A DNA stretch of 64,000 nt from Moorena sp. SIOASIH (lineage in GTDB: Bacteria > Cyanobacteriota > Cyanobacteriia > Cyanobacteriales > Coleofasciculaceae). Below the pieces are notes generated by a model that searched no databases, was not told where the DNA came from, and saw only the letters and a list, made by a program, of their open reading frames with translations. Made by a program: the position numbers and the translations under genes. The stretch is from positions 613,053 to 677,052 of the forward strand of contig NZ_JAAHIH010000001.1 of NCBI RefSeq assembly GCF_010671925.1. The letters are read 5' to 3'. Positions 487 through 29,234 of this stretch are shown in pieces; positions within the stretch are counted from its first letter, which is position 1, and every line of letters starts with the position of its first letter.

Positions 487-1761
487 ATGCGCGTATTTGT
501 ACTCGACAAAAACAAAAAACCATTAGACCCTTGTCAGCCTGCTAGAGCCAGAATTCTACTCAAACAGGGGAAAGCAAGAGTTCTAAAAAGATACCCGTTC
601 ACAATCATTATGCCAGAATTGGAGGTCAAAAACTGTGTAACCCACGAACATCAACTCAAAATAGACCCCGGTGCTAAGACTACGGGCTTAGCCATTGTCC
701 AGGATAATAAAGTTGTTTGGGGAGCTGAACTAACTCACAGGGGTTTTCAAATCAGAGATGCTCTAATCTCTCGTAGGCGGTTAAGGCGTTCTAGGCGTAA
801 CCGGAAAACTCGTTACCGTCAGCCTAGATTTTTGAATCGAAAACGCTCAGTTGGCTGGCTAGCTCCTAGTTTAATGTCACGAGTTCACAATATCTTGACT
901 TGGACTAAAAAGTTAAGTAGATTATGCCCAATTGTTGGTATTTCTCAGGAGTTAGTCCGTTTTGACACTCAAAAAATGGAAAATCCCGAAATATCTGGTG
1001 TCGAGTATCAGCAAGGCACATTGTACGGGTATGAACTACGGGAGTATCTACTTGAAAAATGGAACCGCCAATGTGCTTACTGTGGAGCAGCTAACACTCC
1101 TCTAGAAATAGAGCATATCAAGCCATTAGCTAGGGGAGGCTCTAACCGAGTCTGTAACTTAGCTATTGCTTGTCACAAATGTAATCAGACGAAAGGAGTT
1201 CAGGAAATCGAACAATTTTTGTCTGGCAAACCTAGTGTCTTAAAGCGAGTTTTGGCTCAGGCGAAAAAGCCTTTAGCTAATGCAGCAGCGGTTAACTCAA
1301 CCAGATGGAAATTATACAATCACCTTAAGTCAACTGGTTTACCGATTGAGACCGGTAGTGGTGGATTAACTAAGTATAATCGTTGCCGTCAAAATCTCCC
1401 TAAAACCCATTGGTTGGATGCCGCTAATGTCGGTAAAGTTGATAACTTGTACATCGAAAGCTATCAACCATTATTGATTACAGCTAAAGGACATGGAACT
1501 CGTCAGATGTGTCGAACGAATAAGTTTGGTTTCCCGACTCGTTATGTCCCCAGGTACAAAGAAGTTAAAGGTTTTCAAACCGGAGATATTGTAAAAGCCA
1601 TTGTAACCAAAGGTAAGAAAATAGGAACCTATACAGGCAGAGTAGCTACTCGCCAAACCGGCTCATTTAATATCTCTACAAAACCTGGACTGGTTCAAGG
1701 AATTAGTCACAAATATTGCAGCGTTATACACCGGAAAGATGGATACTATTATAGTTTCTAA
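487..1761 (+). CDS. iscB: IscB, OMEGA RNA-guided nuclease (PLMP domain, RuvC-I/II/III, bridge helix, HNH)
   Basis: 424 aa. N-terminal MRVFVLDKNKKPLDPCQPARARILLK is a PLMP-like domain. KIDPGAKTTGLAIV is RuvC-I. An Arg-rich bridge helix RRRLRRSRRNRKTRYRQPRF follows. CAYCGAANTPLEIEHIKPLARGGSNRVCNLAIACHKCNQTKG is the HNH domain. HWLDAANVG is RuvC-III. The size is typical of IscB. Confidence 0.8.
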   Translation: MRVFVLDKNKKPLDPCQPARARILLKQGKARVLKRYPFTIIMPELEVKNCVTHEHQLKIDPGAKTTGLAIVQDNKVVWGAELTHRGFQIRDALISRRRLRRSRRNRKTRYRQPRFLNRKRSVGWLAPSLMSRVHNILTWTKKLSRLCPIVGISQELVRFDTQKMENPEISGVEYQQGTLYGYELREYLLEKWNRQCAYCGAANTPLEIEHIKPLARGGSNRVCNLAIACHKCNQTKGVQEIEQFLSGKPSVLKRVLAQAKKPLANAAAVNSTRWKLYNHLKSTGLPIETGSGGLTKYNRCRQNLPKTHWLDAANVGKVDNLYIESYQPLLITAKGHGTRQMCRTNKFGFPTRYVPRYKEVKGFQTGDIVKAIVTKGKKIGTYTGRVATRQTGSFNISTKPGLVQGISHKYCSVIHRKDGYYYSF

Positions 1762-4776: not shown

Positions 4777-4846
4777 GGTTGAAGGTTGAAGGTTGAAGGT
4801 TGAAGGTTGAAGGTTGAAGGTTGAAGGTTGAAGGTTGAAGGTTGAC
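4777..4846. repeat. Heptamer tandem repeat (GGTTGAA)n, about 10 copies
   Basis: Direct reading of a perfect tandem heptamer array. Confidence 0.9.
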
Positions 4847-4946: not shown

Positions 4947-5062
4947 CCCTACTCCCTACTCCCTACTCCCTACTCCCTACTCCCTACTCCCTACTCCCTA
5001 CTCCCTACTCCCTACTCCCTACTCCCTACTCCCTACTCCCTACTCCCTACTCCCTACTCCCT
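4947..5062. repeat. Heptamer tandem repeat (CTACTCC)n, about 16 copies
   Basis: Direct reading of a perfect tandem heptamer array. Confidence 0.9.
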
Positions 5063-5085: not shown

Positions 5086-7679
5086 GTGTCTGGAAAATCA
5101 AATAGGCTGAAGTAGCACGGGCGACCGAATATTGGCGCACCTGGGAGCGAGAGGAGTAAGACCCTCTCCCCCCCTAGGATTCAGGAGGGTTCCCACTCGA
5201 AGGTGCAAAAGACGATGGACATCTCGGAAAGAAAAATCTAGGATTATCCCGAAGTCTTTTGTATCAGAGCTAGAGAGAAAGTAGGTTATAACCGAACCAC
5301 CGAATAGGAAATAACCGAACAGGGAAAGAACGACAAGGTTGAAGGACATGAATCGTTGTTTAAAGGCACCGTCATCAGTGATAACCCCGCTAAACTCGGT
5401 GATGGGGTTATAGGCTCCAGGATTACATTGCGTGTTAGATGTAATCGAATCCCATGAAGGACCCGGTGTAGAGACGGCAACCTTTAGTTCGCAACTCACA
5501 GGCGCGTAAACGGGTAAGCCGAGATTGAGTCCATATTGTCTGGTCGATAAATATGGTAGCCAAACCGCAAGGAAAGGTATAACTCTCAGTCCGGTAAAAG
5601 TCTGAACCAAGCAAAGGCCGACACCTGAAAAGGAACGGGAATACATAACCGGTCGGATAGAGGGAAGTCCCTCGCTCGAAAGAGCGCTGAATTTCAGAGC
5701 TGATTCCGAGCCAAGAGGAAACGTACTTAATTAACTTAAAGTGTACATGGAAAAGATAGAACCTATATCGCAAGATACGGGTATCGTAACTGAACACACC
5801 ACTGAATGGCACTCCATAAATTGGAAGAAAGCCTACAGACAGGTGAGGAAATTAAGACAACGTATTTTCAAAGCGACACGTGAAGGAAACTGGAAAAAGG
5901 TCAATAAACTCCAAAGATTGATGCTTAGGAGTTACAGCAATGTCCAGATATCCGTCAAAACAGCCACCCAACAAAATAAAGGAAAGAGAACGGCAGGGGT
6001 TGATCAAGAAAAATGCCTGAATCCTCAAGAAAGAGGACAGATGGTAGACAGATTAATCAACCTCAAATCATGGGCAGCTAAACCCACCAAACGCATCTAC
6101 ATACCCAAGGCCAACGGCAAACAAAGACCCTTAGGGATACCAAGTATCACCGACAGATGTCTACAAGCCATAGTCAAAAACACACTAGAACCTGCCTGGG
6201 AAGCCCAGTTTGAAGGAACCTCATACGGGTTCAGACCAGGCAGAAGTGCCCATGATGCCCGACAACGCATCTTCTCAAATATTAAAGGGGAAAAGAATAG
6301 GAAATGGTGGATAGTGGAAGCGGACATAAAAGGATGCTTCGACAATATAGCCCACCAACCACTTCTGGAATCCATCGGAAACTTTCCAGCAAGAAAGCAA
6401 ATTAAAGACTGGTTAAAGGCAGGGTACGTAGATAAAAATACGTTCCACCCGACAGAATCAGGCACCCCACAGGGGGGAATAATAAGCCCACTTCTGGCCA
6501 ACATTGCTTTACACGGACTGGAAACAGAGTTAGGAATAACCTATAAAAGGGTTAAAAGAAACAACAGGGCAAGTTACTGGGAAAATAAATCCAATAGAAC
6601 AATAGCTCGCTTTGCGGATGACTTTGTAATCATAACAGAGAGCAAAGAAGATGCTGTGAACGCTAAGGAAATCACGAAGAAGTGGTTATCCAAAAGAGGG
6701 TTAGAACTATCGGAAGAAAAAAACCAAGATAACTCACCTAACAGAAGGATTCGATTTCCTAGGATGGAACTTCAGGAAATATAAAACAACCGGAAAAAAG
6801 TCAGGGTACATTACACTAATTAAACCCTCCAAGAAAAGCCTGAAGAACATCAAGAAGGAGATAAAAATAGCCATGGCTCAACTAAAGGGTGCATCAGAAG
6901 ATGTGGTGATAGCCAAGTTACAACCTCTCATAAGAGGATGGACCAACTATCACAACGGGACAGTGGCTAAAGAAACCTTCAACAACCTAAATGAATACGT
7001 AAGATGGAAATTAGTAAGATGGTGCCTAAGAAGATACCCAAAAAATAAAAGTTGGGAATGGATTAAAGCCAAACACTTCGGCAAATTCTGCCCTGGAAGG
7101 GAAGATAACCATGTGTTCGGAAGGAAAGACAATTATCTGGACAAAGCACAATGGACAAACATCACCAGGCATGTGCTAGTAACCCACAACTACTCTAAGG
7201 ACGACCCTGAACTCCAAGAATATTGGAAGAAAAGGCAAGAAAAAAATGGGAAAAAAGCAGCAGAAGGAGCACTATCCAAAGGTAGGAATAAGATAGCCTT
7301 AAGGCAAAAATACACCTGCCCATACTGCGGACAACCACTTGGAGAATATAATAATGTTCATCTACACCACATTATCCCTAGGGAAAATGGGGGAAAAGAT
7401 GAAGCAGGGAACCTAGTATATGTCCACGAAGATTGTCACAGGACCATCCACGCCTTGGGAGCCAGCAATCCTGAGATACAGGAAAAACTGTATCGAGCGA
7501 TAAAAACCCGTCCAAGGAACCGGAAGAAAAGCCAAAAGGTACAAACCCGGTTATCCAAAGACTAAAAGCTGGATGAAAAGATAACGTGTATAAAGGAATT
7601 GGTTGCGCCGTGTGCTTGGTAACTTGCTCGCACGGTGCTTAGGGGGCGAAGAGGGAGCAATCCCTCCGACCTACCCAAT
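5086..7679 (+). mobile_element. Group II intron, about 2.6 kb, with its intron-encoded protein in domain IV
   Basis: An RT-X-HNH ORF is flanked by non-coding RNA-like sequence. A domain V-like hairpin GCGCCGTGTGC-TTGGTAACTTGC-TCGCACGGTGC lies at 7604-7638. A domain VI-like segment ends in ..CCAAT at 7679. The proposed 5' end GTGTC at 5086 and the 3' end are inferred from reconstructing the interrupted dhaL reading frame: joining 5085|7680 restores ..GHQDPVLETIA-stop on the minus strand. Boundaries are within a few nt. Confidence 0.6.
5741..7565 (+). pseudogene. Group II intron-encoded reverse transcriptase/maturase/HNH endonuclease, split by a +1 frameshift in an A7 run (6717-6723)
   Basis: ORF 5741-6784 carries RT domains 0-7 (RPLGIPSITDRCLQA, FRPGRSAHDA, FADDFVII). 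ORF 6873-7565 carries the X/maturase motif RGWTNYH and an HNH domain (CPYCGQ..HHIIPRENGG..HEDCH). Deleting one A from GAAGAAAAAAACC restores the canonical ..LSEEKTKITHLTEGFDFLGWNFRKY.. junction. This is either a genuine pseudogene or a homopolymer sequencing error. Confidence 0.8.
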
Positions 7680-8253
7680 CAGGGTCTTGATGTCCAGCAC
7701 TGCGCTCCCCTAAATAACTGGCTCGTCCTTTCTTGGCCACCAACGGAATAGTATTTTTCATCCCTTCTTCTGCGGCGTTGACGGCCTGTTGCAAGGCTGC
7801 TAGCATACTGTCTCCTTTATCTACAGCTTGTGCGAAGGCATTGGCTGCGGGTGATAGAGCATCTAACATGGTCTTATCTCCCAAGTTGGCTTTGCCTCGC
7901 TGGACGACTCCCTCCACTGCTGCTTGGAATAGTTTGACCATATCCTCTTTTGTCAGTTCTTGCTTTCCTGCTACTGCTGCACTTGAGCGCAAGAACAGGG
8001 TGCCATAAAGTGGTCCACTGGCACCTCCGACACTGGAAATTAGAGTCATGCTGACGGTTTTGAGAATACTGCCAATGTCTTTATCTGCCACTTTAGGAAG
8101 CTCAGTGATCACCTTTTGAAAGCCACGATTCATATTGATACCGTGGTCAGCATCACCAATAGCAGCATCAAGTTCGGTTAGATAGTCCTTGTTTTGTTCT
8201 AGTACAGTAGCGACTGCTTGTAACCACTGTAGAATTTGATGTTTAGTTACCAT
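7639..8253 (-). CDS. dhaL: Dihydroxyacetone kinase ADP-binding subunit DhaL; its C-terminus is replaced by intron-derived sequence
   Basis: ELDAAIGDADHGINMNRG, GGASGPLYGT and KKGRASYLGERSAGHQDPD motifs. The last 12 codons (..DWVGRRDCSLFAP) are read from the group II intron 3' end rather than from dhaL. Confidence 0.8.
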   Translation of the reverse strand: MVTKHQILQWLQAVATVLEQNKDYLTELDAAIGDADHGINMNRGFQKVITELPKVADKDIGSILKTVSMTLISSVGGASGPLYGTLFLRSSAAVAGKQELTKEDMVKLFQAAVEGVVQRGKANLGDKTMLDALSPAANAFAQAVDKGDSMLAALQQAVNAAEEGMKNTIPLVAKKGRASYLGERSAGHQDPDWVGRRDCSLFAP

Positions 8254-8566: not shown

Positions 8567-9640
8567 TCATAATCCCCAACGCAGGGCTGGTGTCTTGACT
8601 GGTGCATCCCAGAATTTAATTAGCTCATCGTTCATCTTGAGTAGGGTAATCGAGCAGCCTTGCATTTCTAGAGACGTAATATAAGGACCAATCAGACTAC
8701 GCACGATTTCCAGTCCCTTTTGTTCACAGATTTGGGCTAATTTCCGATACACAATGTATAGTTCCGACAGGGGAGTACCACCCATGCTATTCACGAATGC
8801 TAGAATGCGATCGCTTTTCTGAAAAGGCGGGTCAGTTATTTCCAACTCTGTCCATTCTGCTTTATCTTCATCCCACTCTCGCAATGTGCGGCTATAGGCA
8901 GAATCTTCAATAATCGATAGCGCTAGCATTTCAGTTATCTCATCCGCTGATTTTAGGGACATTCGTTTTCTTCCCGGTTCTCCGTGAATGCCAATCCCAA
9001 ATTCTATTTCCGCTTCCCCCAAGTCAAACATGGGACTACCTTTAGCAGGAGGGGTGCAGGATGTCAAGGCCATACCCATGCTGCGTCCATTACCATTAAC
9101 CTGGCGACAGAGATTAGCCAGTTGTTTGAGGTCATAACCGGCAGCAGCGGCAGCGCCACAGATTTTCTCGGCTAATAATGTCGTCCCTACCCCCCGCCTG
9201 CCTTGAGTATAGAGGCTATCTTTAACCGCTACATCATCATCAATTAGGATATTGAGGACTCGGATGCCTTCTGAGATAGCTAATTCCGCAGCTAACTCAA
9301 AATTCATGACGTCACCGCTATAGTTTTTGACAATATTAAGAACCCCCGCGCCACTGTTGACTATTTTGGCAGCTTCTAGCATTTGGTCGGGAGTGGGAGA
9401 GGTAAACACTTCACCGGGACAGGCGGCATCTAACATTCCCGCACCCACAAAGCCCCCGTGCAAGGGTTCATGACCACTACCACCACCGGAAATAATCGCT
9501 ACTTTGTTTGATATGGGAGCATCAGCGCGGTAGATCAAGGGGGGGTCAAGATTAATTTTGAGCAGGTCAGGATGGGCTACAGCCATGCCTTCTAGGCTTT
9601 CTCTGACAACATTATCGGGATGATTGATTAATTTTTTCAT
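8567..9640 (-). CDS. dhaK: Dihydroxyacetone kinase DHA-binding subunit DhaK
   Basis: 357 aa. Motifs [30 protein letters not shown] and PGRKRMSL match the Dak1/DhaK family. Upstream of dhaL on the same strand. Confidence 0.85.
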
Positions 9641-10455: not shown

Positions 10456-11964
10456 ATGACCATAACCAAACCAATGTCATCTCAACGATATGCAGAATTT
10501 GACCAGGTCTTCCAGTTATTTGATGCCAATGGTGATGGATTCATCAGTCGTCAGGAGATCATCGATGCTCTAGAGATTCTGGGACAAGGCATTTCCCTTC
10601 AAGACCGAAGTAATCTGTTAAATCTGCTCAACACAGATGATGTTGTAACACGGGATGCCTTTATGGAGTGGATGGTAAACCGCCAAGATCTCGATATTAG
10701 GGCTGATCTGCGACAGGTGTTTGAACTGATTGATGTTGATGGTAGTGGCAAGTTATCGATTGAGGAGTTCACCCAGATTATCCGGTGCTTCAACACCACC
10801 GTAACTGATTCAGAAATTGCTGCCTTAGTGAGAAAAGCTGATTTAAATGGAGATGGTGAAATTGATTTTGAAGAGTTTATTGTCACTCAGACTTACGAAT
10901 CGGCTCTGAAAATTTCGATCGCAGGGTTACGCAGTTTCAAAAAGATTTTACTTCAGTACCAGAAAGTCGCAAAGTTTTCCTCCATTGCCCTGATTGAAGT
11001 TGATTCTGAATTAGGAGCGGGAACGCGCGGTCAATCCATGGGAACTGCTGCTTTGAGAGAAGCTGCCATCCAAAAACAGGCAGCACGGATGCATGCCGAG
11101 AATGGTGTTTTGAGTCTGGATAGTTTACAAGTACAAACCGAAAATTGGGCAGATGCTCTGGGACACAAACATCAATACGCCAAGTATATTCACAAGCTAT
11201 ATCAGGTGCTGAGCCGAACTACAGATGTAGTCGCCCAAACCCTACAGGAGGGGCTGTTTCCAGTGGTACTCGGTGGGGATCATTCAACGGCAGCAGGGAC
11301 AATCGCCGGAATCAAAAAAGCCTTTCCGAATCATCGCCTGGGAGTGGTTTGGATTGATGCCCATGCCGATATTCACTCCCCCTATACGACTCCATCGGGA
11401 AATATGCATGGGATGCCTCTGGCGATGGCGACTGCTACTGATAATCTGGCCAAGCAAATCAATGATCTTGACTCAGACACCGTAAAACTGTGGAACTTGT
11501 GCCAACGATTGGGGCTGGCAGATGGCGCGAATTTTAGCATTGAGGATTTGGTTTATATTGCGGTACGAGATACGGAAGAGGCAGAAGACCATTTGATTGA
11601 AACACACCAGATCCTAAACATGACCAGTGAGCACGTTCGTACCTTGGGTGCGGATGTCGTTGCCCAACGGTGTTTAGAGAAGCTAGAAGGGGTGGATCTG
11701 ATTTACGTTACCTTCGACGTGGACAGTATGGACTCGACAATTTGTATGGGAACGGGAACCCCGGCTCCAAATGGGATTTTTGTCAAGGAAGCCTGTCTGC
11801 TCAACGAAACTTTGGTTAAAGATCCACGGGTGTGTTGTTGGGAAATCTGTGAAATTAATCCTCTGCTTGATACCCTCAACACCATGGTGGAAAACTCTTT
11901 GGGCATTTTTGAAACCGTAGTGGATGCCATTGCCAATCGCCTAGAAGTCACAGGGAAAGCATAA
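10456..11964 (+). CDS. EF-hand calcium-binding domain fused to an arginase-family ureohydrolase
   Basis: N-terminal EF loops DANGDGFISRQE, DVDGSGKLSIEE and DLNGDGEIDFEE. The C-terminal part aligns with arginase: VVLGGDHSTAAG, VVWIDAHADIHSPYTTPSGNMHGMPLA (compare [26 protein letters not shown]), VYIAVRDTEE, IYVTFDVDSMD..GTGTP, EICEINPLLD. Confidence 0.8.
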   Translation: MTITKPMSSQRYAEFDQVFQLFDANGDGFISRQEIIDALEILGQGISLQDRSNLLNLLNTDDVVTRDAFMEWMVNRQDLDIRADLRQVFELIDVDGSGKLSIEEFTQIIRCFNTTVTDSEIAALVRKADLNGDGEIDFEEFIVTQTYESALKISIAGLRSFKKILLQYQKVAKFSSIALIEVDSELGAGTRGQSMGTAALREAAIQKQAARMHAENGVLSLDSLQVQTENWADALGHKHQYAKYIHKLYQVLSRTTDVVAQTLQEGLFPVVLGGDHSTAAGTIAGIKKAFPNHRLGVVWIDAHADIHSPYTTPSGNMHGMPLAMATATDNLAKQINDLDSDTVKLWNLCQRLGLADGANFSIEDLVYIAVRDTEEAEDHLIETHQILNMTSEHVRTLGADVVAQRCLEKLEGVDLIYVTFDVDSMDSTICMGTGTPAPNGIFVKEACLLNETLVKDPRVCCWEICEINPLLDTLNTMVENSLGIFETVVDAIANRLEVTGKA

Positions 11965-11979
11965 GACAAATGTTCAACT

Positions 11980-13635
11980 ATGATTAAACCTTCTATTCCC
12001 CCGGCTACCCCTGAACCCTCACCGCTCCATGAACTAATTGCCAAGCTAGTACTGTTCAAACCCCATCGGACTAAGCTATTTCCCTGGTTGCTACCTGGTG
12101 CAGGCACATTGCCATCTCTCAATCAACGGTTAGGCCATCAACCCCTGTTGGATTTTTTGAATTACAACTTGCGTGGCATTGGCCAGGTAATCTTTGTGAA
12201 CAACCCCCTGAGTGGGTTATTGATTCTGGTAGCACTGTTTATTCAGTCACCTTGGGTAGGGGTGATGAGTGTAGTGGGTGTGGTGGCTTCAACCGTAACT
12301 GCCATCTTCCTTGATCTTAATCGCGATAGTCTTCGCAACGGTATTTTTGGCTATAACGGGATTTTAGTCGGAGCAGCACTTGCTACTTTTGGGGCATCCG
12401 GGAATGGTAACTGGAATCCCCTCTGGATCATCGCTGCTATCATCTTTTCTGCTCTTACCACTCTGCTGATCAAGACCGTCGGAGTCTGGTTTGCCAGCAA
12501 GCTGAAATTTCCCCCCCTAACCTTGCCCTTTATTGCGGCAACCCTGTTATTTCTGGTGATTGCGGTCTGGATGCCTCAACCAGTTTATACCTTGGGGAGC
12601 ACGCCGACTCCCCCACCTGTCTTGGAACCGATCAATTGGTGGCAACTTGCCACCTCCGTGCCGATTGGGTTTGGACAGGTGTTTTTAATGGATAAGTTTG
12701 TGGCTGGGGTGCTTGTCCTGGCCGCAGTTGCCTGGTGTACACCGATTGGGGCAGCTGTCGGATTATTGGGGGGAGTATTCGGTACCCTGGCGGCGCTGAT
12801 CACAGGTGTCGGTGCTGACACCATCTCGGCTGGATTGTGCAGTTACAACGCCATCTTGACAGCAATGGCTATTTCTGGAGTATTTTTTGCCCCCAACCTG
12901 CGCAGCTTACTTGCGGGCATTTTTTTGGCTTTTTTTTCAACTCTCCTGGGGGGCATTTTAAGCCACATCTTCAGCCTACTTAACTTGCCCATCCTGACCT
13001 TACCCTTCTGTTTGGTCACAATCCTAGGTTTCCGGTATTTGCAGCAGACACTGCCATCATTAGTCCCAGTTCCCCTACATGCGATCGCTAGCCCAGAAGA
13101 ACATTACCAGCGTTACCTGGTTGCCAAAGATATCCTTACCACATTTCGCCGTCAGATGCAAGGGGCAATGGCCGGTACACCCCACCTATATTTATTTGAG
13201 TCTGCCTCCGCCTCAACCAAAGGAAATATCGAATATCTCTTTAATGCCATTGATACCGATTTCAGTAACACCCTTTCGGTTAACGAGCTAGCAGAACACC
13301 TGCGGCAAGTCAAACGAGGTATGTCTCAACAGGAATTGGATTATTTGTTTCGTTGTATGGATATTGATGGCAGTGGTGAAATTGATCTGGCTGAGTTTGG
13401 TGAATTGTTATTGCGTCAGCAACGATTGATGTCTAACTATAACGACTTCATTACTTACTTTATACCAATTGATGCTAATCAGGATGATGCTATCAGTATC
13501 GATGAAATGAATTTAGCTTTTGCCAGTGTAGGTGAATCACCCCTTAGTGTACATGAAGTGAACTTTTTATATGGTCGCATGAATGGAGAAGCTATCACCT
13601 GGAATCGCTTTATTGAAGTTTTATTGGTGACTTGA
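11980..13635 (+). CDS. Urea transporter (UT family) fused to a C-terminal multi-EF-hand domain
   Basis: The UT signature LRGIGQVIFVNNPLSGLLIL is followed by about 8 predicted TM helices. The C-terminal ~190 aa carries EF loops DTDFSNTLSVNE, DIDGSGEIDLAE and DANQDDAISIDE. Confidence 0.75.
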   Translation: MIKPSIPPATPEPSPLHELIAKLVLFKPHRTKLFPWLLPGAGTLPSLNQRLGHQPLLDFLNYNLRGIGQVIFVNNPLSGLLILVALFIQSPWVGVMSVVGVVASTVTAIFLDLNRDSLRNGIFGYNGILVGAALATFGASGNGNWNPLWIIAAIIFSALTTLLIKTVGVWFASKLKFPPLTLPFIAATLLFLVIAVWMPQPVYTLGSTPTPPPVLEPINWWQLATSVPIGFGQVFLMDKFVAGVLVLAAVAWCTPIGAAVGLLGGVFGTLAALITGVGADTISAGLCSYNAILTAMAISGVFFAPNLRSLLAGIFLAFFSTLLGGILSHIFSLLNLPILTLPFCLVTILGFRYLQQTLPSLVPVPLHAIASPEEHYQRYLVAKDILTTFRRQMQGAMAGTPHLYLFESASASTKGNIEYLFNAIDTDFSNTLSVNELAEHLRQVKRGMSQQELDYLFRCMDIDGSGEIDLAEFGELLLRQQRLMSNYNDFITYFIPIDANQDDAISIDEMNLAFASVGESPLSVHEVNFLYGRMNGEAITWNRFIEVLLVT

Positions 13636-15263: not shown

Positions 15264-18110
15264 TCAAACCGACCTGTCGAGTTGGTTGATAATATACTCT
15301 TTAACCCCAAAAGCCGAATCTAGCTGCAACGCCTCACCAGCAAGCATCTCGGCCTGGTTGATACTCAACTGTGTAATAACTGAAATCACAGTAGCGATCG
15401 CAGGTGGATTCACACTCAACTCATCCACCCCCAATCCTAATAAAATCGGTATCCCTACTGGATTCGATGCCAACTGACCACAGACACTAACTGGAATCCC
15501 TGCTTGATGAGCAACAGTTACCGTTTGCTGAATCATCCGTAGCACAGCTGGTTCAAGGGCATCAGCCAGCTTCGCCACCTTGGGATTAGTACGGTCAGCG
15601 GCCATCACATATTGACTCAAATCATTGGTACCAATGCTGAAAAAGTCCACTTCAGCGGCTAACTGATCAGCCATGGTTACTGCTGCCGGGACTTCTACCA
15701 TAATCCCCACTGGCATCTGTTCATTAAAACGATGCCCTTCTTGGCGCAACTCGGCTTTAGCCTCTGCTAGGATTTCCTTAGCAGCCCGTACCTCTTGTAC
15801 TGAAGAAACCATAGGAAACATCACTTTAATGTTGTGTCCATAACTCCCTCGTAGAATCGCCCGCAGTTGGATTTTGAGCATCTCTGGACAATCCAAACTC
15901 TGACGAATTCCCCGCCATCCTAGGAAAGGGTTAGGCTCTGGGGTGTGCGGAGCAGAGGAAGCATCAGAAGACGCTAGATTCAGGAAGGGAATGGGCTTGT
16001 CACCGCCAATATCCAAAGTACGAATCGTTAGGGGATGGGTACCCATAATTTGCGCAATGGCTTGATAGGTTGCCAACTGCTCTTCCTCGCTCGGAATAGT
16101 TAAGCGTTCCAGATAAAGAAACTCAGTCCTAAGTAAACCGACCCCTTGAGCACCACAATCGAGAGCCAATTTAGCATCAGCCTCTCCCAAAACATTTGCC
16201 ATCAAGGGAATTTTGTGTCCATCATGAGTAATTACCTCCCTAGGTAATTCATCCTTACTGTTGCTCTGTAGCTGTAATTCTTGCTTTTGTTCCTCAGAAG
16301 GCTCTACCCAAATTTCACCGGTTGTCCCATCCAGTGCCAACTCCGTACCAGCTGGCAACGACAACAGATCCTGACCAACACCAACCACCATCGGTATACC
16401 GAGCATATTGGCGATTAGGGCACTATGGGCTGTAGCACTGCCCCTAGCGCAACAGATACCTAGGACTTGGATCGGATTTAGTTGTGCGACCTCAGAGGGA
16501 GTTAAATCAGCAGCAACCAGAATACCAGGCTCAGTCACATCTATTTGACTTACTAAGTTTAGTTGGTTTTGCCCCCCTGCCCCCCAATTTTTCGGTGCGA
16601 CCCGTGGCGAATTTAATTCGCCAACGGAAAGCGCACCGGGAGGGGTAATCATGTCAAAGTCCCCCGCCCCCCTAACCCCCCAATTCTGGGGGGAATTAGC
16701 GGATGCTTTGCTTTTTGACATTGGGGGATTTAGGGGGCTCTTGCGTAAGTCCTGATCTAGACAGCTTTCTTTCCTATTCGTGAGTAATCGCAACACTCGC
16801 CAGCCGACATCGATCACATCATTTCCGCGAGCTTGCATGTAGGAGTCTTCCAGAGTTTGGTAATTTGCTACGGTTTCATCGATCACAGTTTTCCAAGCCG
16901 CCCCTGCCCATAGATGCTGGTCAACTATAATCTGATAAGCTCTATTAACTAGGGCTGGATCCTCTAAATAGAGCAAGTGAGCCTGAAAAATATCTGCCTG
17001 ATCGTTAGTAACAGTATTGATCAGGTGTTCAAGTTGCTGTTGTGCTGTTTTAATAGCAAGTTGTAGGGTTTCCCACTCCCCTTGAGGATTATCTGTTTGC
17101 TCTTCAATAATTTCTGGACGTTTGGGTTGGTAGACAATAACCGCTCCGATAGCAATACCAGCAGCAGCGGGAATTCCAACTAACCTATCAAGTGTGACAG
17201 ATGACGAGTGAAGGGATTGGTTACTGGGAGGGTTAGAGTCTTGGTTGATGTCTTCTTTTGGTTTATCTAGTTTTTCCCCAAAATTGTTATGGACTAGCTG
17301 CTGCAACGCGATCAAGGCTAATTCCGCATCTTCTCCTACTGCATAGATGACTATTTTATCTCCCTGTTGGATACCTAAAAGCATCACATTATTAATGCTT
17401 TTTCCATTAACTATATTGCTAGTTTTGGTTAGGTTTTGTAGGGTTATTTCACAGTTAAACCGATTAGCTGTAGTAACAAATTGGGCAGCAGGACGAGCAT
17501 GAATTCCCTGTTGATTCTGGACAGTAAGATGGATTTCTTTGGTTGTAGTTCCGTAGGGTGCGTTAGGGACGGGCTCACCCTGATTTTCCCCTTCGTAGCC
17601 AGGGTTGGAACAGCCAGTCCCACCCACGGGCAAGATGCCCGTTCCACCCACGGGCAAGATGCCCGTTCCACCCACGGGCAAGATGCCCGTTCCACCCACC
17701 GGGTCTGATAACTGAGAGGCTTTAGCGGTTAAGGCTGATCTAGCTTCAGCAATCACTTGGTCGATATCACCACCAGCCGCAGCTTGGACAACCGCTGCGA
17801 TCGCACCTTCCACTAATGGCGCTTCGCACAATCTTACCTTGGGTTTCTGCTCTTCATCCAGAAACTCCAGTGCCATTTCCGCACTGAGCACGGCACTGCC
17901 TAAATCCATTAATACCACTACCCCAGCATCGGAGTAAACCGACTCAATGGCAGCTTGGACTTGCAGCACATCGGTACCAAAGGGATTTTCCGGGTCATCG
18001 ATACCAGCTGCGATCGCAATCGGTACGGATGTCTGAACCATCTGTTGGGCTAATTCCTTGACCCCAGCCGCTAGCTTAGCACTGTGGGAGATAATCACAA
18101 TTCCAATCAT
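15264..18110 (-). CDS. dhaM: Multidomain phosphotransferase DhaM/PtsP-like: EIIA(Man)-like domain, then a hairpin-repeat linker, then HPr, then Enzyme I
   Basis: MIGIVIISHSAKLAAG is the EIIA-Man/DhaM N-domain. GIHARPAAQFV is the HPr His site. GSATAHSALIANMLGIPMVVG, GGLLRTEFLY, IRTLDIGGDK and FSIGTNDLSQY are Enzyme I/PEP-utilising motifs. The ORF track starts at 18197 inside a (GGCAAGA)n array; the conserved start MIGIV is at 18110. Confidence 0.85.
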   Translation of the reverse strand: MIGIVIISHSAKLAAGVKELAQQMVQTSVPIAIAAGIDDPENPFGTDVLQVQAAIESVYSDAGVVVLMDLGSAVLSAEMALEFLDEEQKPKVRLCEAPLVEGAIAAVVQAAAGGDIDQVIAEARSALTAKASQLSDPVGGTGILPVGGTGILPVGGTGILPVGGTGCSNPGYEGENQGEPVPNAPYGTTTKEIHLTVQNQQGIHARPAAQFVTTANRFNCEITLQNLTKTSNIVNGKSINNVMLLGIQQGDKIVIYAVGEDAELALIALQQLVHNNFGEKLDKPKEDINQDSNPPSNQSLHSSSVTLDRLVGIPAAAGIAIGAVIVYQPKRPEIIEEQTDNPQGEWETLQLAIKTAQQQLEHLINTVTNDQADIFQAHLLYLEDPALVNRAYQIIVDQHLWAGAAWKTVIDETVANYQTLEDSYMQARGNDVIDVGWRVLRLLTNRKESCLDQDLRKSPLNPPMSKSKASANSPQNWGVRGAGDFDMITPPGALSVGELNSPRVAPKNWGAGGQNQLNLVSQIDVTEPGILVAADLTPSEVAQLNPIQVLGICCARGSATAHSALIANMLGIPMVVGVGQDLLSLPAGTELALDGTTGEIWVEPSEEQKQELQLQSNSKDELPREVITHDGHKIPLMANVLGEADAKLALDCGAQGVGLLRTEFLYLERLTIPSEEEQLATYQAIAQIMGTHPLTIRTLDIGGDKPIPFLNLASSDASSAPHTPEPNPFLGWRGIRQSLDCPEMLKIQLRAILRGSYGHNIKVMFPMVSSVQEVRAAKEILAEAKAELRQEGHRFNEQMPVGIMVEVPAAVTMADQLAAEVDFFSIGTNDLSQYVMAADRTNPKVAKLADALEPAVLRMIQQTVTVAHQAGIPVSVCGQLASNPVGIPILLGLGVDELSVNPPAIATVISVITQLSINQAEMLAGEALQLDSAFGVKEYIINQLDRSV
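17618..17701. repeat. 24-nt tandem repeat (CCCACGGGCAAGATGCCCGTTCCA, about 3.5 copies) inside dhaM, encoding (GGTGILPV)n
   Basis: Direct reading. The unit contains the hairpin AACGGGCAAGATGCCCGTT, which also occurs at 35770-35830, 19390-19420 and within the 61-bp satellite at 22895-23290. Confidence 0.85.
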
Positions 18111-18149
18111 AAGGTATATAAACACCTTTGTATCTGGGTTGTGAACATA

Positions 18150-18205
18150 CTCCCAAAGGCAAGAGGCAAGAGGCAAGAGGCAAGAGGCAAGAGGCAAGAG
18201 GCAAA
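18150..18205. repeat. Heptamer repeat (GGCAAGA)6 in the dhaM 5' leader
   Basis: Direct reading; duplicated at 19555-19585. Confidence 0.85.
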
Positions 18206-18446
18206 AGGGAAGGCATTGCTGATTAATAGAATGATGGAAAGTAACTGAGGAGTACGCAAATAATCCTAATGGCTGGTGTTATTATGCCCGGTGTTTGTTT
18301 GACAGGGGTGAAAATCAGGGAGCGGCTGAAGCTATTCAGAAAGCTGATCATCTATGCTCGAATAATTGGCTAGTTTATGGGGCCTTATATAAGATTTTGA
18401 ACAAGTCACCCCTTATCCCTTTCTTAGTAGGAGAGGGCGAAATAAC

Positions 18447-19183: not shown

Positions 19184-19454
19184 GCGAACGCATTACTGAT
19201 AGTTAAAGAGGTGCGTTACACTTGGTTAACGCACCTGACAAGATAAGCGATCGCACTTGGTTAACGCATCCGACAAGATAGGCGATCGCACTTGGTTGTC
19301 AAGCGATCGCCTATTCCAAACTTGGCGTTGCTTAATAATGGAATGATTTTAAGAGTTTTGTGGAATAGGCATCTTGGTGGAACTGGCATCTTGCCAGTTT
19401 CATGCTTATTTTCGGGCGGGCAGGATACCCACCCTACTCCTATTCATTCAAAGA

Positions 19455-22894: not shown

Positions 22895-23290
22895 GCATCC
22901 TGCCCGCGCGAAGATTGTAACAGGCAAGATGCCTGTTCCACCAAGATGCCCATTCCACTAAAGCCTTAAAATCCATGATTAAGCAATGCCAGGAACAGGC
23001 AAGATGCCTATTCCACTAAAGACTTAAAATCCATGATTAAGCACCGGAACAGGCAAGATGCCCATTCCACTAAAGCATTAAAATTATTCCATTATTAAGC
23101 ACCGCTGGAACAGGCAAGATGCCTATTCCACTAAAGCATTAAAATTATTCCATTATTAAGCACCGGAACAGGCAAGATGCCCATTCCACCTCAGCCTTAA
23201 AATCATTCCATTATTAAGCACCGCTGGAACAGGCAAGATGCCCATTCCACCTCAGCCTTAAAATCATTCCATTATTAAGCACCGCCATCG
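22895..23290. repeat. 61-bp satellite-like tandem repeat, about 6.5 copies
   Basis: Unit GGAACAGGCAAGATGCCCATTCCAC(TAAAG/CTCAG)CCTTAAAATCATTCCATTATTAAGCACCGCT. Each unit contains the GGCAAGATGCC hairpin core. Confidence 0.85.
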
Positions 23291-23384
23291 AACACGCACC
23301 CTACTCAGGATGCATATCCTAAAAGCTATTTAACCTGATGCTGCATTACGAGACGGACTCTTCTAACACTGCTAAGGAGGGGGA

Positions 23385-23720
23385 AAATTAGGGCGAGCTG
23401 CTCCCTAAAGAACCCTACGTAACATTTATCAAAGTAAGACGCACCCTGCACCCTTTTGTCCGAGTGCAGCTTCGAGTTTACAGCCCCCAAAAGCTTCTGC
23501 TATCTCGATCAGAAAGTTTTTCCAAGAGGAACTTGACCCAAGAAACAACCTCCTGTTCCGCATTTTCACCCCATGGGCGATCAGAACTGAGGTTTGTTGC
23601 CAGAATTAGTCCTGTTGATGCACCAAAACTCACTATCCCATACTTGTTCTAATAAAACAAGTTAAGTTCGTCAACTTAATCCTTCAAGTGCAGTCAGAGC
23701 TTGAGTTGGGATTGTTTATT
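23385..23720. pseudogene. Degenerate duplicate of the ECF sigma factor 5' coding/promoter region
   Basis: 23490-23720 is collinear with the reverse complement context of 21950-22300 (..TCGATCAGAAAGTTTTTCCAAGAGGAACTTGACCCAAGAAACAACCTCCTGTTCC..CATGGGCGATCAGAACTGAGGTTTGTTGCCAG..AAAACAAGTTAAGTTCGTCAACTTAAT..) at roughly 80% identity. Confidence 0.45.
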
Positions 23721-24909: not shown

Positions 24910-25506
24910 ATGGCATTAGTACCTATCCGTAAGGCGGTCGAACTTACAGGACTATCTCCAAACACACTACGGAAGTATGCAGACAATGGCACCATTCGAT
25001 GCGAGAGAACCCCAGGAGGGACTAGACTCTTTGACTCAACAGATCTTCGCAGTTTTGGAAAAGCTCGAAGGGCTAGTAGACCCAACAATGTCACCATCTG
25101 CTACTGCCGAGTCAGTAGCAGTAAACAACGAGACGATCTCGCTCGCCAAGTCGCCTATCTGCATTCCCTCTTCCCCGAAGCAGAAATCATCTTTGACATC
25201 GGTTCCGGCCTCAACTACAAAAGAAAGGGGCTTAGAACCATACTGGAGCGAGTTGTCTGCGGAGATAAGCTCACGATTGTTGTTGCCTGTAAAGACCGAC
25301 TTACCCGATTCGGGTTTGAACTCATTGAGTACTTGGTCGGTCTCAACGGTGGAAAAATCCTGGTTCTCGACCAGTCTAAAAACTGCCCAGAATCAGAGCT
25401 TACCGCAGATCTTCTCTCCATCATTCACGTCTTCTCCTGTCGGGTTCACGGACTCAGGAAATACGGTCAGAAAATCAAAGAAGATTCGTCTGTTCCTAAA
25501 CCCTAG
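24910..25506 (+). CDS. tnpA: IS607-type TnpA: MerR-like HTH + serine recombinase (resolvase) catalytic domain
   Basis: HTH LVPIRKAVELTGLSPNTLRKYADNG. Resolvase motifs ICYCRVSSSKQRDDLARQ (catalytic Ser) and VVACKDRLTRFG. Confidence 0.8.
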   Translation: MALVPIRKAVELTGLSPNTLRKYADNGTIRCERTPGGTRLFDSTDLRSFGKARRASRPNNVTICYCRVSSSKQRDDLARQVAYLHSLFPEAEIIFDIGSGLNYKRKGLRTILERVVCGDKLTIVVACKDRLTRFGFELIEYLVGLNGGKILVLDQSKNCPESELTADLLSIIHVFSCRVHGLRKYGQKIKEDSSVPKP

Positions 25507-26581
25507 TCAGCGATCGCTAGTCCGTAAGTGGTTCGGAGTGTCCCGTTATGTTTTCAATAAAACAGTTAAAATTCTCCAGAGTGGCGAAGTAAAAGCCAAC
25601 TGGAAAGCCATTAAAACTGGTATTCTAAATGACCTACCCGACTGGTGCAAGGAAGTGCCTTATCAGATCAAATCGATAGGGATTAAGGATGCTTGCACTG
25701 CTGTCAGGGAGGCTAAGAAGAAGTACAAGAAAACATTAGATATAAACCGGGTAAGGTTTAGATCTCGAAAGAATCCTATTCAGTCTTGCTATATCCCAAA
25801 GTCAGCCATTTCAGATGTAGGGATGTATCACACTAAATTAGGCGAGCTAAAGTATTCAGAGCCTCTTCCAATAGAAGTGTGCGACAGCCGACTAACCAGC
25901 AATAATGGGGACTTCTATTTAGTAGTTCCCCATAAAGTAACAAAAACGAATGCCGAAAACCAAGGTAGAGTAGTTGCTTTAGACCCTGGAGTCAGAACTT
26001 TCATTACTTTTTTCAGTGAGACATCTGTCGGGAAGATTGGGCATGGGGACTTTTCAAGAATCCAGCGACTCTGCCAACACCTAGACAACCTACTGTCTAA
26101 AATCAGTAAAGCTAAAGGTGGGCAAAAGCGTCGGATGAAGAAAGCCGCCAGGCGAATGGTTATTAAGATTCAAAATCTAGTCAACGAATTGCACCATAAG
26201 ACGGCTAGATTCTTGGTTGATAACTTCGATGTAATTCTTATCCCTACTTTTGAGACATCTCAGATGTCAAGGAAAGGGAACAGGAAAATTAGATCTAAAA
26301 CCGTTCGTAATATGCTCACCTTCGCTCATTACCGTTTCAAAGAATTTCTAAAACATAAAGCCCAGGAAATGGGGAAACTGGTAATAGATGTCTGTGAGGC
26401 TTACACCAGTAAGACTGTTAGTTGGACAGGTGAATTGCTCAACATTGGTGGAAGCAAAATAATCACATCGAAAGTTGATGGTCGATCTATGGATCGAGAC
26501 ATTAACGGCGCTCGGGGGATATTCCTCAGAGCCTTGGGAGATACCCCCTGGTTGCGAGAGCAACTTGCATTAGTGAGCTAA
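25472..26581 (+). CDS. tnpB: TnpB (OrfB) RuvC-like RNA-guided nuclease-family protein of the IS607 element
   Basis: KIRLFLNPSQRSLVRKWFGVSRYVFN is a typical TnpB N-terminus. ALDPGVRTF is RuvC-I. The C-terminal DINGARGI follows a zinc-finger-like region. The start codon is uncertain: there is no in-frame ATG near the conserved N-terminus, so it is probably a GTG/TTG start overlapping the tnpA end. Confidence 0.75.
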   Translation, partial: KSKKIRLFLNPSQRSLVRKWFGVSRYVFNKTVKILQSGEVKANWKAIKTGILNDLPDWCKEVPYQIKSIGIKDACTAVREAKKKYKKTLDINRVRFRSRKNPIQSCYIPKSAISDVGMYHTKLGELKYSEPLPIEVCDSRLTSNNGDFYLVVPHKVTKTNAENQGRVVALDPGVRTFITFFSETSVGKIGHGDFSRIQRLCQHLDNLLSKISKAKGGQKRRMKKAARRMVIKIQNLVNELHHKTARFLVDNFDVILIPTFETSQMSRKGNRKIRSKTVRNMLTFAHYRFKEFLKHKAQEMGKLVIDVCEAYTSKTVSWTGELLNIGGSKIITSKVDGRSMDRDINGARGIFLRALGDTPWLREQLALVS

Positions 26582-28517: not shown

Positions 28518-29234
28518 TTGTACCTCATTCAAATAATAATTGCTATAACCATGATGGAATTAGAACTAATAACTAAAGTATATCCGATTACAAAGAATTG
28601 CCAATTATTATATGAACGAGGAGAACATGCACTTTTAGGTATTAGTCCATTTAATAGCTATTTTTCAGAAAAAAATATCGCTATTTTATCAAACTGGGCG
28701 ATGAAGAATTTTAAGAGCTTTAATTTTTTTATACCAGACGAGCCCTATGTCTATACACTAATGGCTTTAGGATACGATAAAGTTAAAGCCATAAAAAAAT
28801 CTAAAAGGCAAGCTAATTATTTAAAAAATAAATGTCTAAGAGCCTTAACAGGATTAGACCTATCAACAAATGAAGCCGAAGCACTAATCTTAGATTTCCG
28901 GTATTTGAACAAAAACAAAAATTATCTCTCAGCACTAAAATTTTATGAAGATAAATATGCTAATGATAGTGAATTTAGAATAAATTGTATCGAAACGTCT
29001 AAGCAGGTAGTGGAAACACGAACATACCTTAGTTATGATCGGTTAGAAATTGCTGTTAAGTATCTATTAGCAGAATTACCTTTGTTTTTTAACAGTGTCA
29101 GTATTTTGGGTAAAAAAGAAGGAGTTTTTTGTTACCGGTATTGCCCCTTGTTAATTCAAACTGTTTTTGAGAAAAAAAATGGGATGGTATTGAATAATCA
29201 AGGTTACCTTATTATAGATATTGAATCTAATTAA
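28518..29234 (+). CDS. Putative tRNA-dependent cyclodipeptide synthase (CDPS, AlbC-like)
   Basis: ERGEHALLGISPFNSYFSEKNIAILSNWA matches the AlbC catalytic-serine region as recalled (..RGEHALIGIS.GNSYFS..). KYLLAELPLF contains the conserved Y-x3-E pair. VFCYRY contains the conserved Tyr. About 238 aa. About 30% GC against roughly 45% in flanking genes. The true start may be the internal MMELEL. Confidence 0.6.
   Translation: MYLIQIIIAITMMELELITKVYPITKNCQLLYERGEHALLGISPFNSYFSEKNIAILSNWAMKNFKSFNFFIPDEPYVYTLMALGYDKVKAIKKSKRQANYLKNKCLRALTGLDLSTNEAEALILDFRYLNKNKNYLSALKFYEDKYANDSEFRINCIETSKQVVETRTYLSYDRLEIAVKYLLAELPLFFNSVSILGKKEGVFCYRYCPLLIQTVFEKKNGMVLNNQGYLIIDIESN

Follow-up and report, generated by a model that had tools for sequence, protein, structure and literature searches.

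Rickettsia palindromic elements (RPEs; Ogata et al. 2000) of about 100-150 bp have been reported both in intergenic DNA and in frame within unrelated protein genes, according to two later accounts (PMC10969869, PMC3184786). For cyanobacteria, the repeats SDR1-8 of Nostocaceae (Elhai et al. 2008, Genome Res 18:1484) were described as dispersed units of 21-27 nt whose mobility was deduced from copies nested in other repeats (cited through PMC5861425, PMC3116915, PMC3733652), and they were reported in Nostocaceae only (PMC5861425). REP and REPIN sequences are imperfect palindromes of 20-40 nt with an unpaired GT(A/G)G head, which are mobilised by RAYT proteins and include cyanobacterial GTAG families (PMC3116915, PMC3733652). 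Cyanobacterial MITEs, such as those of Anabaena (Wolk et al. 2010) and Nezha, sometimes fuse in frame to ORFs or inactivate genes (reviewed in PMC3184786).

The event described here, which was found in the dhaM gene of Moorena sp. SIOASIH, is of the same kind as those known from RPEs and the small cyanobacterial repeats. Like RPEs, the dhaM element is a short palindromic selfish repeat which adds peptide at a position compatible with the fold, and its hairpin family has copies in noncoding DNA as well as in-frame ones in NRPS, NirB, CobN-family and oxoprolinase genes. However, the host phylum is another one and the sequences are unrelated; RPEs add a surface loop, whereas the dhaM element replaces a linker and is modular, with a 24-nt hairpin module lying in a REPIN-like base and being tandemly amplified. 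The module resembles SDRs by their description, both being tiny dispersed cyanobacterial units with a filled/empty pattern in other repeats, but its hosts are mainly Oscillatoriales-type genera (such as Moorena, Microcoleus and Tychonema) and mostly not Nostocaceae. Inverted dimers, high abundance and stem covariation are shared with REP/REPINs, although REPs are by definition extragenic, the hairpin head is mostly GTGG instead of GTAG, and no RAYT gene was present among the ORFs scanned in the window (the whole 64,000-nt stretch analysed). MITEs are likewise non-autonomous repeats of filamentous cyanobacteria; in contrast to them, the two junctions of the dhaM linker both lack a TSD, this copy showed no terminal inverted repeats that match an IS element, and the module is far smaller.

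The dhaM gene and the tandem array in its linker

The dhaM ORF (15264-18197, minus strand) is open upstream to a TTG at 18197, the ATG at 18110 being the likely start (Table 1), and the frame is uninterrupted over 948 codons. The order of domains in Pfam was EIIA(Man)-like, linker, HPr and a full Enzyme I (in ORF numbering, residues 32-148 for EIIA-man, 222-303 for PTS-HPr and 341-944 for the domains of Enzyme I). The EIIA(Man)-like domain with its phospho-His stands at the N-terminus (PF03610, E = 1.6e-26), HPr and Enzyme I are fused in one chain (PF00381, PF05524, PF00391 and PF02896 all matched), and the Enzyme I part matched PEP-utilisers_N, PEP-utilizers and PEP-utilizers_C. The best protein matches were Moorena proteins named DhaM. 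The phospho-His H9 and the HPr motif GIHARPA were invariant in the DhaM alignment (A1), and the Enzyme I motif TAHSA was read directly in the translation. DhaK and DhaL, the kinase subunits served by DhaM, are intact and non-adjacent, 5.6 kb from dhaM. Compared with the orthologue of Moorena sp. SIO3F7 (L001), dN/dS was 0.245 overall and 0.025 in EIIA, as an average over the whole divergence and not over the time since the insertion; the domains flanking the linker are under purifying selection, and DhaM probably continues to function.

Table 1 Features of the dhaM region and repeat copies in the window
Feature	Position	Strand	Details
DhaL (Dak2)	7639-8253	-	Pfam E = 8.6e-55
DhaK (Dak1)	8567-9640	-	Pfam E = 8.8e-125
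dhaM CDS	15264..18110	-	948 codons from ATG at 18110; ORF list
Second in-frame repeat insertion	16544..16753	-	210 nt, 70 codons, ...SPLNPP...PQNWGVRGA...
Interdomain linker	17549..17704	-	156 nt, 52 codons, DPVGG...NAPYG
GTAG-headed arm of palindromic base element	17553..17579	+	GTAGGGTGCGTTAGGGACGGGCTCACC; coding strand ...EPVPNAPY
Tandem array of 24-nt hairpin module	17613..17699	-	coding strand GGTGGAACGGGCATCTTGCCCGTG; 3 full units and a partial one
Intergenic hairpin copy	19360..19404	-	compensated stem ACTGGCA/TGCCAGT and 17-nt partial duplicate
61-nt satellite, 5.9 copies	22917..23285	+	GGCAAGATGCC core in each unit
Base-element copy without hairpin module	23335..23430	+	BLAST to linker positions 94-165; alignment A2
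Two intergenic hairpin copies 30 nt apart	35767..35829	-	plus-strand GTAG head GTAGAATGGGCATCTTGCCCGTT

Tandem Repeats Finder reported the array at 17613-17699 with period 24, 3.6 copies and 96% matches; the period is perfect over 17620-17699 (80 nt, 3.33 copies), and the exact 24-mer CCCACGGGCAAGATGCCCGTTCCA occurs three times against an expectation of 0. The array is translated in frame from the minus strand as (GGTGILPV)n, and the predicted peptide sequences spanning the DhaM insert are ...SQLSDPVGGTGILPV... and ...NAPYGTTTK. An initial annotation of this DNA had described about 3.5 copies of a 24-nt repeat exactly between EIIA and HPr, translated as this same octapeptide; the former statement agreed with Tandem Repeats Finder and Pfam and the latter with the in-frame minus-strand ORF. 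The 8-bp stem given there had to be revised, since the palindrome of the array is a 17-mer (ACGGGCA-AGA-TGCCCGT) with a stem of 7 bp and a loop of 3 nt, and the 19-mer cited for the longer stem, AACGGGCAAGATGCCCGTT, is absent from both strands. Folding, which had been proposed as a check, gave a 7-bp hairpin for each 24-nt unit (-7.8 kcal/mol, z = -4.1); for the whole array z was -4.6 as DNA and -3.7 as RNA, the folding energy of its mRNA being -60.6 kcal/mol. No known RNA family was found at the array in Rfam at gathering thresholds. None of the six frames of the 24-nt module contains a stop codon, and a stop-free array is therefore weak evidence of selection.

Extent and copies of the composite element

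The whole 156-nt linker is one composite dispersed element, which stands in place of the ancestral linker. It is the sole part of the 5' half of dhaM without homology to L001, and its GC content is 64% compared with 47% in the rest of dhaM. AlphaFold pLDDT is below 50 at exactly residues 136-187 and above 90 in the flanking domains, which places the insert, like those of RPEs, at a fold-neutral site. The linker aligned end to end with the intergenic sequences L122 (M. producens JHB), L123, L074, L048 and L003; copies aligned to its full length came from four Moorena assemblies, to which the window adds a single partial one, and the nucleotide identity spans 150 nt. Thus the 24-nt array proposed initially was retained, but the repeat-derived segment is larger than it and takes in all of 17549-17704. 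Likewise, a linker created from dispersed-repeat DNA was upheld, whereas amplification of a 24-nt unit between intact flanks gave way to replacement of the linker by the composite.

The base element, of about 95 nt, is palindromic, GTAG-ended and REPIN-like, with the 24-nt hairpin module nested inside it. It has two inverted arms with GTAG/GGTG heads, and the GC-rich module, GGTGGAAC-GGGCA-TCT-TGCCC-GTG, lies near its left end. In alignment A2 the GTAG-headed arm of the dhaM copy shows up as a conserved block, ...GAGCCCGTCCCTAACGCACCCTAC; in L122 this arm pairs with the inverted arm GGTGCGTTACGGGCCGG (17 nt, 82% complementary). The dhaM copy has lost the left arm and is truncated at its left end relative to the intergenic copies. 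Because of this truncation and the absent TSD, a classical MITE insertion was ruled out for the dhaM copy. Copies free of the module (L048, L003 and 23335-23430 in the window) read GGTG followed directly by GTGCGTTAC, and in L122 exactly 24 nt, GGTGGAACGGGCATCTTGCCCATG, are inserted at this point; the window copy represents the 'empty' state of the module. The number of modules was 0 in L048 and L003, 1 in L122, about 1.5 in L074, 3.3 in dhaM and about 8 in P0121. Module number thus varies among copies of the element at other sites; for dhaM itself, the polymorphic length expected in the initial annotation is a prediction. This filled/empty pattern points to mobility of the module and would also be compatible with deletion instead of insertion. 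The 'hypothetical proteins' P0122-P0127 are spurious translations of intergenic copies (DPVGGTGILPV...NPGYE.EN.G..PNAPY).

Within the window the core GGCAAGATGCC occurs 12 times against 0.05 expected: three times in dhaM, at 19385, six times in the satellite at 22923-23242, and at 35776 and 35806. The copy at 19360..19404 belongs to a single unit, of about 61 nt, of the satellite family. The initial annotation had already placed the same hairpin core at 19390-19420, at 35770-35830 and in the satellite units; the sites were confirmed, but the stems of the satellite and of the copies near 35,770 are imperfect, and in the satellite at 22917..23285 only the first unit has a perfect 8-bp stem, those of later units being degenerate. 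The 47-84-nt satellites were not accepted as CRISPR arrays, since their 'spacers' do not differ from unit to unit. The Pfam scan covered 41 window ORFs, all 130 aa or longer except for one of 125 aa (53 ORFs in the window list reach 130 aa). It gave no match to Y1_Tnp (RAYT / Y1 transposase); only genes of IS605 OrfB/TnpB were found among the scanned ORFs. The window as a whole is extremely repeat-rich, with 133 rows in the Tandem Repeats Finder output.

Origin of the linker and competing explanations

The orthologue of Moorena sp. SIO3F7 is 94-97% identical at the DNA level on both sides of the linker, and its linker is unrelated, being 186 nt long compared with 156 nt in the window dhaM. The peptide GGTGILPV was absent from the 20-21 other DhaM sequences in the alignment, L001 among them, so that the comparison of orthologues suggested initially showed no peptide shared with other DhaM proteins; in the linkers of other cyanobacterial DhaM proteins, different repeats occupy this position. 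The linker is thus foreign to dhaM. Metagenome scans gave 0 matches for the conserved sequence flanking the linker on the left and 0 for the tandem junction of the array, and among PLSDB plasmids the linker had no BLAST match.

We consider it very probable that the EIIA-HPr linker is non-native, a non-autonomous dispersed palindromic repeat which is tolerated as a passive passenger and is not a selected innovation. Since neither an empty site nor a second dhaM allele with the composite element was recovered, we only infer the direction and mechanism of the event. The element may have entered by illegitimate or microhomology-mediated recombination, or by insertion followed by deletion; clean transposition is unlikely, because the copy is left-truncated and the ancestral linker is gone. 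The module would then have been expanded to 3.3 copies in place, possibly because replication slipped between the GGTG direct repeats and the hairpins that it contains, or it may have arrived already expanded. The event could survive because 156 nt keeps the frame, the module is stop-free in all frames and the site is a tether predicted to be disordered. The only job of this tether would be to allow contact among the domains EIIA, HPr and Enzyme I in the phosphorelay (PEP -> EI-His -> HPr-His -> EIIA-His -> DhaL-ADP), in which the Gly/Pro-rich peptide would act as a passive flexible spacer.

A second in-frame insertion lies in Enzyme I, at the hinge that joins its alpha-helical subdomain to its phospho-His domain. 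This 210-nt insert is absent from L001, where CTAGATC runs straight into TGACTGAG, and it is a repeat mosaic whose parts also occur in L001, L041 and L054. Only the frame in use is stop-free among its three sense frames. Most of the insert has pLDDT below 50 (residues 158-210 of the modelled fragment), with reduced values over about 150-220. It is independent of the linker insertion and, from the predicted structure, tolerated likewise in a hinge loop. As different repeats stand at the same spot in close relatives, both the EIIA-HPr linker and the Enzyme I hinge are marked as permissive.

The view that dhaM is decaying or dispensable, with the repeat insertions as first lesions and the open frame as luck, seems improbable to us, though it has facts in its favour. 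The SIO3F7 orthologue is interrupted by a MITE-like element of about 101 nt that contains a stop, and its homology to the window dhaM is lost near the 3' end, where an IS605 OrfB gene lies close by; this allele is broken, therefore at least one Moorena can do without dhaM, and the window copy might have been inactivated recently and show no signs of it yet. Two separate insertions in one gene, a module unable to make stops in any frame, and the absence from the public protein collection of any protein identical to the window DhaM fit decay as well. Four neighbouring proteins encoded in the window, and P0001 and P0121, likewise had no exact match there. However, the lengths of both inserts (156 and 210 nt) are multiples of 3, the longer one uses its sole stop-free sense frame, the models put both in loops that separate domains folded with confidence, none of the three phospho-His motifs is lost, dN/dS is low, above all in EIIA, and DhaK and DhaL are intact. 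Adaptive domestication, in which the length of the Gly/Pro linker would tune phosphotransfer or mRNA hairpins would tune translation, with copy number as a contingency switch, is in our judgement decidedly improbable. In its favour, the 24-nt periodicity is kept perfect, so that the array is recent or homogenised, and the mRNA fold is strong; the repeats hosted by several cyanobacterial DhaM linkers also speak for it, but repeated colonisation is predicted by a permissive site too. The linker of close relatives is unrelated, therefore no specific sequence is required, an array of the same period occurs in a non-genic context (P0121), and the linker is predicted to be disordered. For the first and last of these reasons, and given the other repeats at this place in other lineages, the term 'domesticated' used initially was dropped.

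Misassembly of a repeat-rich genome, making the copy number or the array itself false, is very unlikely: abundant as tandem repeats are in the window, the 80-nt array is shorter than an ordinary read, its flanks continue in frame into coding sequence that is well conserved, and independent assemblies show similar arrays (P0121, L074). Practically no credence is left for an ancient conserved peptide repeat, with a native linker and coincidental intergenic look-alikes. The in-frame periodicity fits it and nothing else does; it is refuted by the absence of the peptide from all 21 aligned orthologues, even the one with nearly identical flanking DNA, and by the 150-nt match to intergenic copies, and the excess of the core in the window also speaks against it. 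With the passive-passenger reading preferred, the dhaM linker is a clear example, if one with precedents, of a gene that tolerates junk DNA and retains an intact frame. It is a clean natural experiment, in which the interdomain tether of a phosphorelay was wholly swapped for selfish palindromic DNA with the reading frame kept, and it does not overturn current understanding. Such insertion positions are of use to protein engineering as naturally validated linker positions.

The hairpin family across cyanobacteria

The search for the core, suggested initially on a genome-wide scale, was run across other genomes and revealed a dispersed family, in intergenic DNA of other Moorena and in other genera. 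Among the matches listed there are at least 120 loci, of which 111 are cyanobacterial, in Moorena, Microcoleus, Tychonema, Okeania, Symploca, Lyngbya and Caldora. These 111 loci hold at least 260 cores and at least 62 adjacent opposite-strand (inverted) pairs within 120 nt, corresponding to REPIN-like dimers. The stem pair flanking the core was A-T in 134, G-C in 45, T-A in 18 and C-G in 5 of the matches listed, and non-Watson-Crick in only 10 of 212, which indicates strong covariation of the stem. The head is GTGG in most copies and GTAG in those near 35,770 and in the arm of the base element. A full-text literature search with the core sequence returned only unrelated eukaryotic papers.

In-frame copies lie at or close to Pfam domain boundaries of real multidomain genes: at aa 996 of an NRPS, after AMP-binding (577-967); at aa 326 of NirB, between Pyr_redox_2 and Rubredoxin_C; at aa 239 of a CobN-family protein (CobN/ChlH family), between DUF3479 and CobN; and at aa 650 of an oxoprolinase, within the Hydant_A_C match (541-708) and just upstream of the B domain (737). 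It is conceivable, and suggested here only tentatively, that the GTGG-headed hairpin (GTGGAAC-N-GGCA-TCT-TGCC-N'-GTTC) represents phylum-wide, very small mobile modules which survive systematically at boundaries of multidomain proteins and whose six-frame openness was selected. If so, DhaM, NRPS, NirB, ChlH/CobN and oxoprolinase would exemplify a recurrent natural source of interdomain linkers, and the hairpin would be a built-in marker of permissive insertion sites and a cyanobacterial counterpart of the Rickettsia RPEs, undescribed outside Nostocaceae. The family bears on the spread of very small repeats and also on annotation, many Moorena and Microcoleus 'hypothetical proteins' being translations of the hairpin repeat. 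Nine pattern matches among those listed were non-cyanobacterial, which is consistent with chance, for which about 70 matches would be expected by our own estimate (17 fixed bases, 596 Gb, both strands). The matches in Verrucomicrobia adjoin similar hairpins.

The tandem array in the dhaM linker

The ORF at 15264-18197 encodes a multiphosphoryl-transfer form of DhaM, and a protein search returned the DhaM of Moorena bouillonii and Moorena sp. SIO3F7 as its nearest proteins. As the initial annotation had stated, a 24-nt repeat lies in the dhaM frame between EIIA and HPr and is translated as (GGTGILPV)n; it was detected by Tandem Repeats Finder with 3.6 copies and 96% matches, and its perfect period-24 run covers 17620-17699. 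The core GGCAAGATGCC was also present at the other sites named there, with 12 occurrences in the window versus 0.05 expected. The 8-bp stem had to be corrected: the proposed 19-mer was absent from both window strands, and the true palindrome, ACGGGCA-AGA-TGCCCGT, has a stem of 7 bp (-7.8 kcal/mol, z = -4.1).

Coordinates of the features discussed (window positions unless a contig, ORF residues or aa are named)
Feature	Position	Strand	Remarks
HEARO RNA (RF02033, 117 bits) and RRXRR + HNH ORF	203-1761	+	RNA directly upstream of ORF; IscB/OMEGA-type element
Heptamer tandem repeats (examples)	4777-4845; 4947-5062; 29940-30542		Perfect, STRR-like
Group II intron	5741-7679	+	Reverse transcriptase/maturase split (ORFs 5741-6784, 6873-7565); Rfam Intron_gpII match 7603-7679 overlaps dhaL 3' end
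DhaL	7639-8253	-	Kinase partner of DhaM
DhaK	8567-9640		Kinase partner of DhaM
Arginase-family enzyme and adjoining urea transporter	10456-13635	+	Both fused to EF-hand calcium-binding domains
dhaM ORF	15264-18197	-	Likely start ATG at 18110 (948 codons)
EIIA-man	ORF residues 32-148		Pfam
PTS-HPr	ORF residues 222-303		Pfam
PEP-utilisers_N	ORF residues 341-457		Pfam
PEP-utilizers	ORF residues 555-627		Pfam
PEP-utilizers_C	ORF residues 653-944		Pfam
Second in-frame repeat insertion	16544-16753	-	210 nt, 70 codons, SPLNPP...PQNWGVRGA..., Enzyme I hinge
EIIA-HPr linker	17549-17704	-	Composite element
24-nt repeat	17613-17699		
Heptamer array AGGCAAG x8	18157-18212		Immediately upstream of dhaM start
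GTGG-headed hairpins	22627; 33727	-	
IS605 OrfB/TnpB-type ORF	24977-26581	+	
Cyclodipeptide synthase (PF16715, E = 4.7e-54)	28518-29234	+	Adjoins methyltransferase with winged-HTH domain
IS605 OrfB/TnpB-type ORF	42449-43423	-	
TPS-secretion + CHAT-domain protein	44358-48353	+	1331 aa; in-ORF perfect 24-nt tandem repeat x5.4 (46611-46739)
Region of composite element + heptamer arrays	L122 2079-4315		Between Phage_GPD and Phage_base_V genes
MITE-like element in SIO3F7 dhaM	L001 6204-6304		TAGCAG/CTGCTA ends; internal GACTTCT x5; apparent 4-nt duplicated target (TATA)
NRPS hairpin	aa 996		Just C-terminal to AMP-binding (577-967)
NirB-type nitrite reductase hairpin	aa 326		Between Pyr_redox_2 and Rubredoxin_C
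CobN/Mg-chelatase protein hairpin	aa 239		Between DUF3479 and CobN domain; 3 copies, 57- and 66-nt spacing
Oxoprolinase hairpin	aa 650		Within Hydant_A_C match (541-708), just upstream of B domain (737)
Two orthologous PhoD-like proteins			Hairpin within open frame

A composite element in place of the native linker

The SIO3F7 contig carrying the dhaM orthologue (L001) was 94-97% identical to the window in DNA across dhaM, with three exceptions: the EIIA-HPr linker, which is 156 nt in the window versus 186 nt in L001 and unrelated, with L001 carrying a different repeat that encodes PLNPPNLGDF..PQIWGVRGA; the 210-nt insertion, not found in L001; and a MITE-like insertion of about 101 nt, which breaks the L001 gene at that point. 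GGTGILPV was found in 0 of 21 aligned DhaM sequences, and the GC content of the linker was 64% versus 47% in the remainder of dhaM. An ancient linker peptide shared among orthologues is thus contradicted by the unrelated L001 linker, the aligned sequences and the GC contrast. Other cyanobacterial DhaM linkers hold other repeats, such as VVGAGLTEISAFPPTNLINPP in one or two copies.

In a protein search, the linker matched only 'hypothetical proteins' of Moorena and Microcoleus, which read DPVGGTGILPV...NPGYE.EN.G..PNAPY and have the motif order of the DhaM linker. Its DNA could be aligned over the full length with copies at L122 (M. producens JHB), L003 (M. producens 3L), three further loci (L123, L074 and L048) and the window at 23335-23430; for the L122 and L123 copies, an intergenic position was verified from the gene calls. 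The base element is an imperfect palindrome of about 95 nt, whose 17-nt arms show 82% complementarity. Its end, ...CCTAACGCACCCTAC, gives a GTAG head on the opposite strand. The copies at L048, L003 and 23335-23430 have no hairpin module and read GGTG joined directly to GTGCGTTAC, the point at which L122 carries exactly 24 nt (GGTGGAACGGGCATCTTGCCCATG). The number of units was about 1.5 in L074, 3.3 in dhaM and, as translated in the M. producens JHB protein P0121, about 8. Given the empty copies, the exact filling in L122 and these differing numbers, the 24-nt hairpin is a discrete module that can be present or absent and whose tandem copies vary in number.

The foreign repeat origin of the linker proposed in the initial annotation therefore holds, but not as an invasion by the hairpin array alone: the whole linker is the composite element, in which the array is one module, and this element took the place of a native linker. 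Because some 24 nt at the left of the intergenic copies are missing from dhaM and no target-site duplication was seen at its copy, clean transposition is disfavoured, and entry may have occurred by illegitimate recombination or by insertion followed by deletion.

The Phage_GPD and Phage_base_V genes around the L122 copy are VgrG-like halves in different frames and may represent either one VgrG that has been split or two genes in their own right. The AGGCAAG heptamer also flanks this copy and lies upstream of the L001 dhaM. The translated stretch preceding the dhaM start (MPLASCL...) has one more unit in the window than in SIO3F7, suggesting that SIO3F7 has a lower heptamer copy number.

State of the host gene

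AlphaFold predicted the EIIA and HPr domains with pLDDT above 90; the stretch that dropped below 50 was exactly residues 136-187, the 52-codon element. The dN/dS against L001 was 0.245 overall and 0.025 in EIIA, the phospho-His motifs are kept, and both inserts are divisible by three in length. Other Moorena repeats are combined as a mosaic in the 210-nt insert; its single stop-free sense frame is the one used by dhaM, and in an Enzyme I fragment it was predicted as a disordered, low-confidence loop between confident domains. Against a live host gene counts the clearly broken sister allele, by which dhaM is dispensable in at least one Moorena; the SIO3F7 gene is probably a pseudogene. Nothing supports the domestication originally claimed, and the element is most simply explained as a selfish passenger that is tolerated and serves as a passive flexible tether. 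Such a linker is not unprecedented in kind, since Rickettsia RPEs are likewise in-frame palindromic repeats and ORF fusions are known for Anabaena MITEs (PMC10969869, PMC3184786).

Beyond 7382 in L001, homology to the window stops near an IS605 OrfB gene.

The hairpin family and its in-frame copies

A scan with the pattern GGCAAGATGCCNNTTCCAC, one genome per species, gave at least 120 loci. Among the matches listed, 111 of 120 loci were cyanobacterial, and the hosts were Moorena, Microcoleus, Tychonema, Okeania, Symploca, Lyngbya, Caldora and a few Nostocales. The stem pair beside the fixed core covaried in these matches (A-T 134, G-C 45, T-A 18, C-G 5; unpaired in 10 of 212). Some copies stood alone, and others formed inverted doublets (62 adjacent opposite-strand pairs) or satellites whose period ranged from 27 to 114 nt; none of the sampled arrays among them had the 24-nt period. 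The short palindrome and the inverted doublets are shared with REP/REPIN elements, and the GT(G/A)G head, which is GTGG in most copies, may be a further resemblance; GTAG-REP families have been described from cyanobacteria (PMC3733652). A Pfam scan of 41 window ORFs, against 53 listed with a length of 130 aa or more, revealed no RAYT gene; only IS605 OrfB/TnpB genes were found, and among the scanned ORFs no TnpA (Y1) was seen beside the two ORFs of this type. In size and nesting, the 24-nt module is like the 'small dispersed repeats' (SDRs) reportedly described by Elhai et al. in 2008. SDRs have been reported from Nostocaceae only (PMC5861425).

All six frames of the 24-nt unit are free of stop codons. 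In other genomes, the hairpin was found within long open frames with complete domain sets on either side (table). These genic copies are a minority located at or close to domain junctions, and were read as survivorship at permissive sites; the more interesting possibility is family-wide in-frame survival at domain junctions in Oscillatoriales-type cyanobacteria.

The GTGG-headed hairpins in the window are related but have another stem and loop (GTGGCACAGGCTTC[CT]AGCCTGTG), and very similar ones flank pattern matches in Verrucomicrobia MAGs (L055, L110 and L044); GTGG-headed REP-like hairpins may form a wider superfamily. The TPS-secretion and CHAT-domain ORF contains further in-frame repeats besides the 24-nt one. 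Furthermore, heptamer repeats are exceptionally dense in the 64-kb window, with up to about 87 consecutive copies, and the tandem-repeat rows numbered 133.
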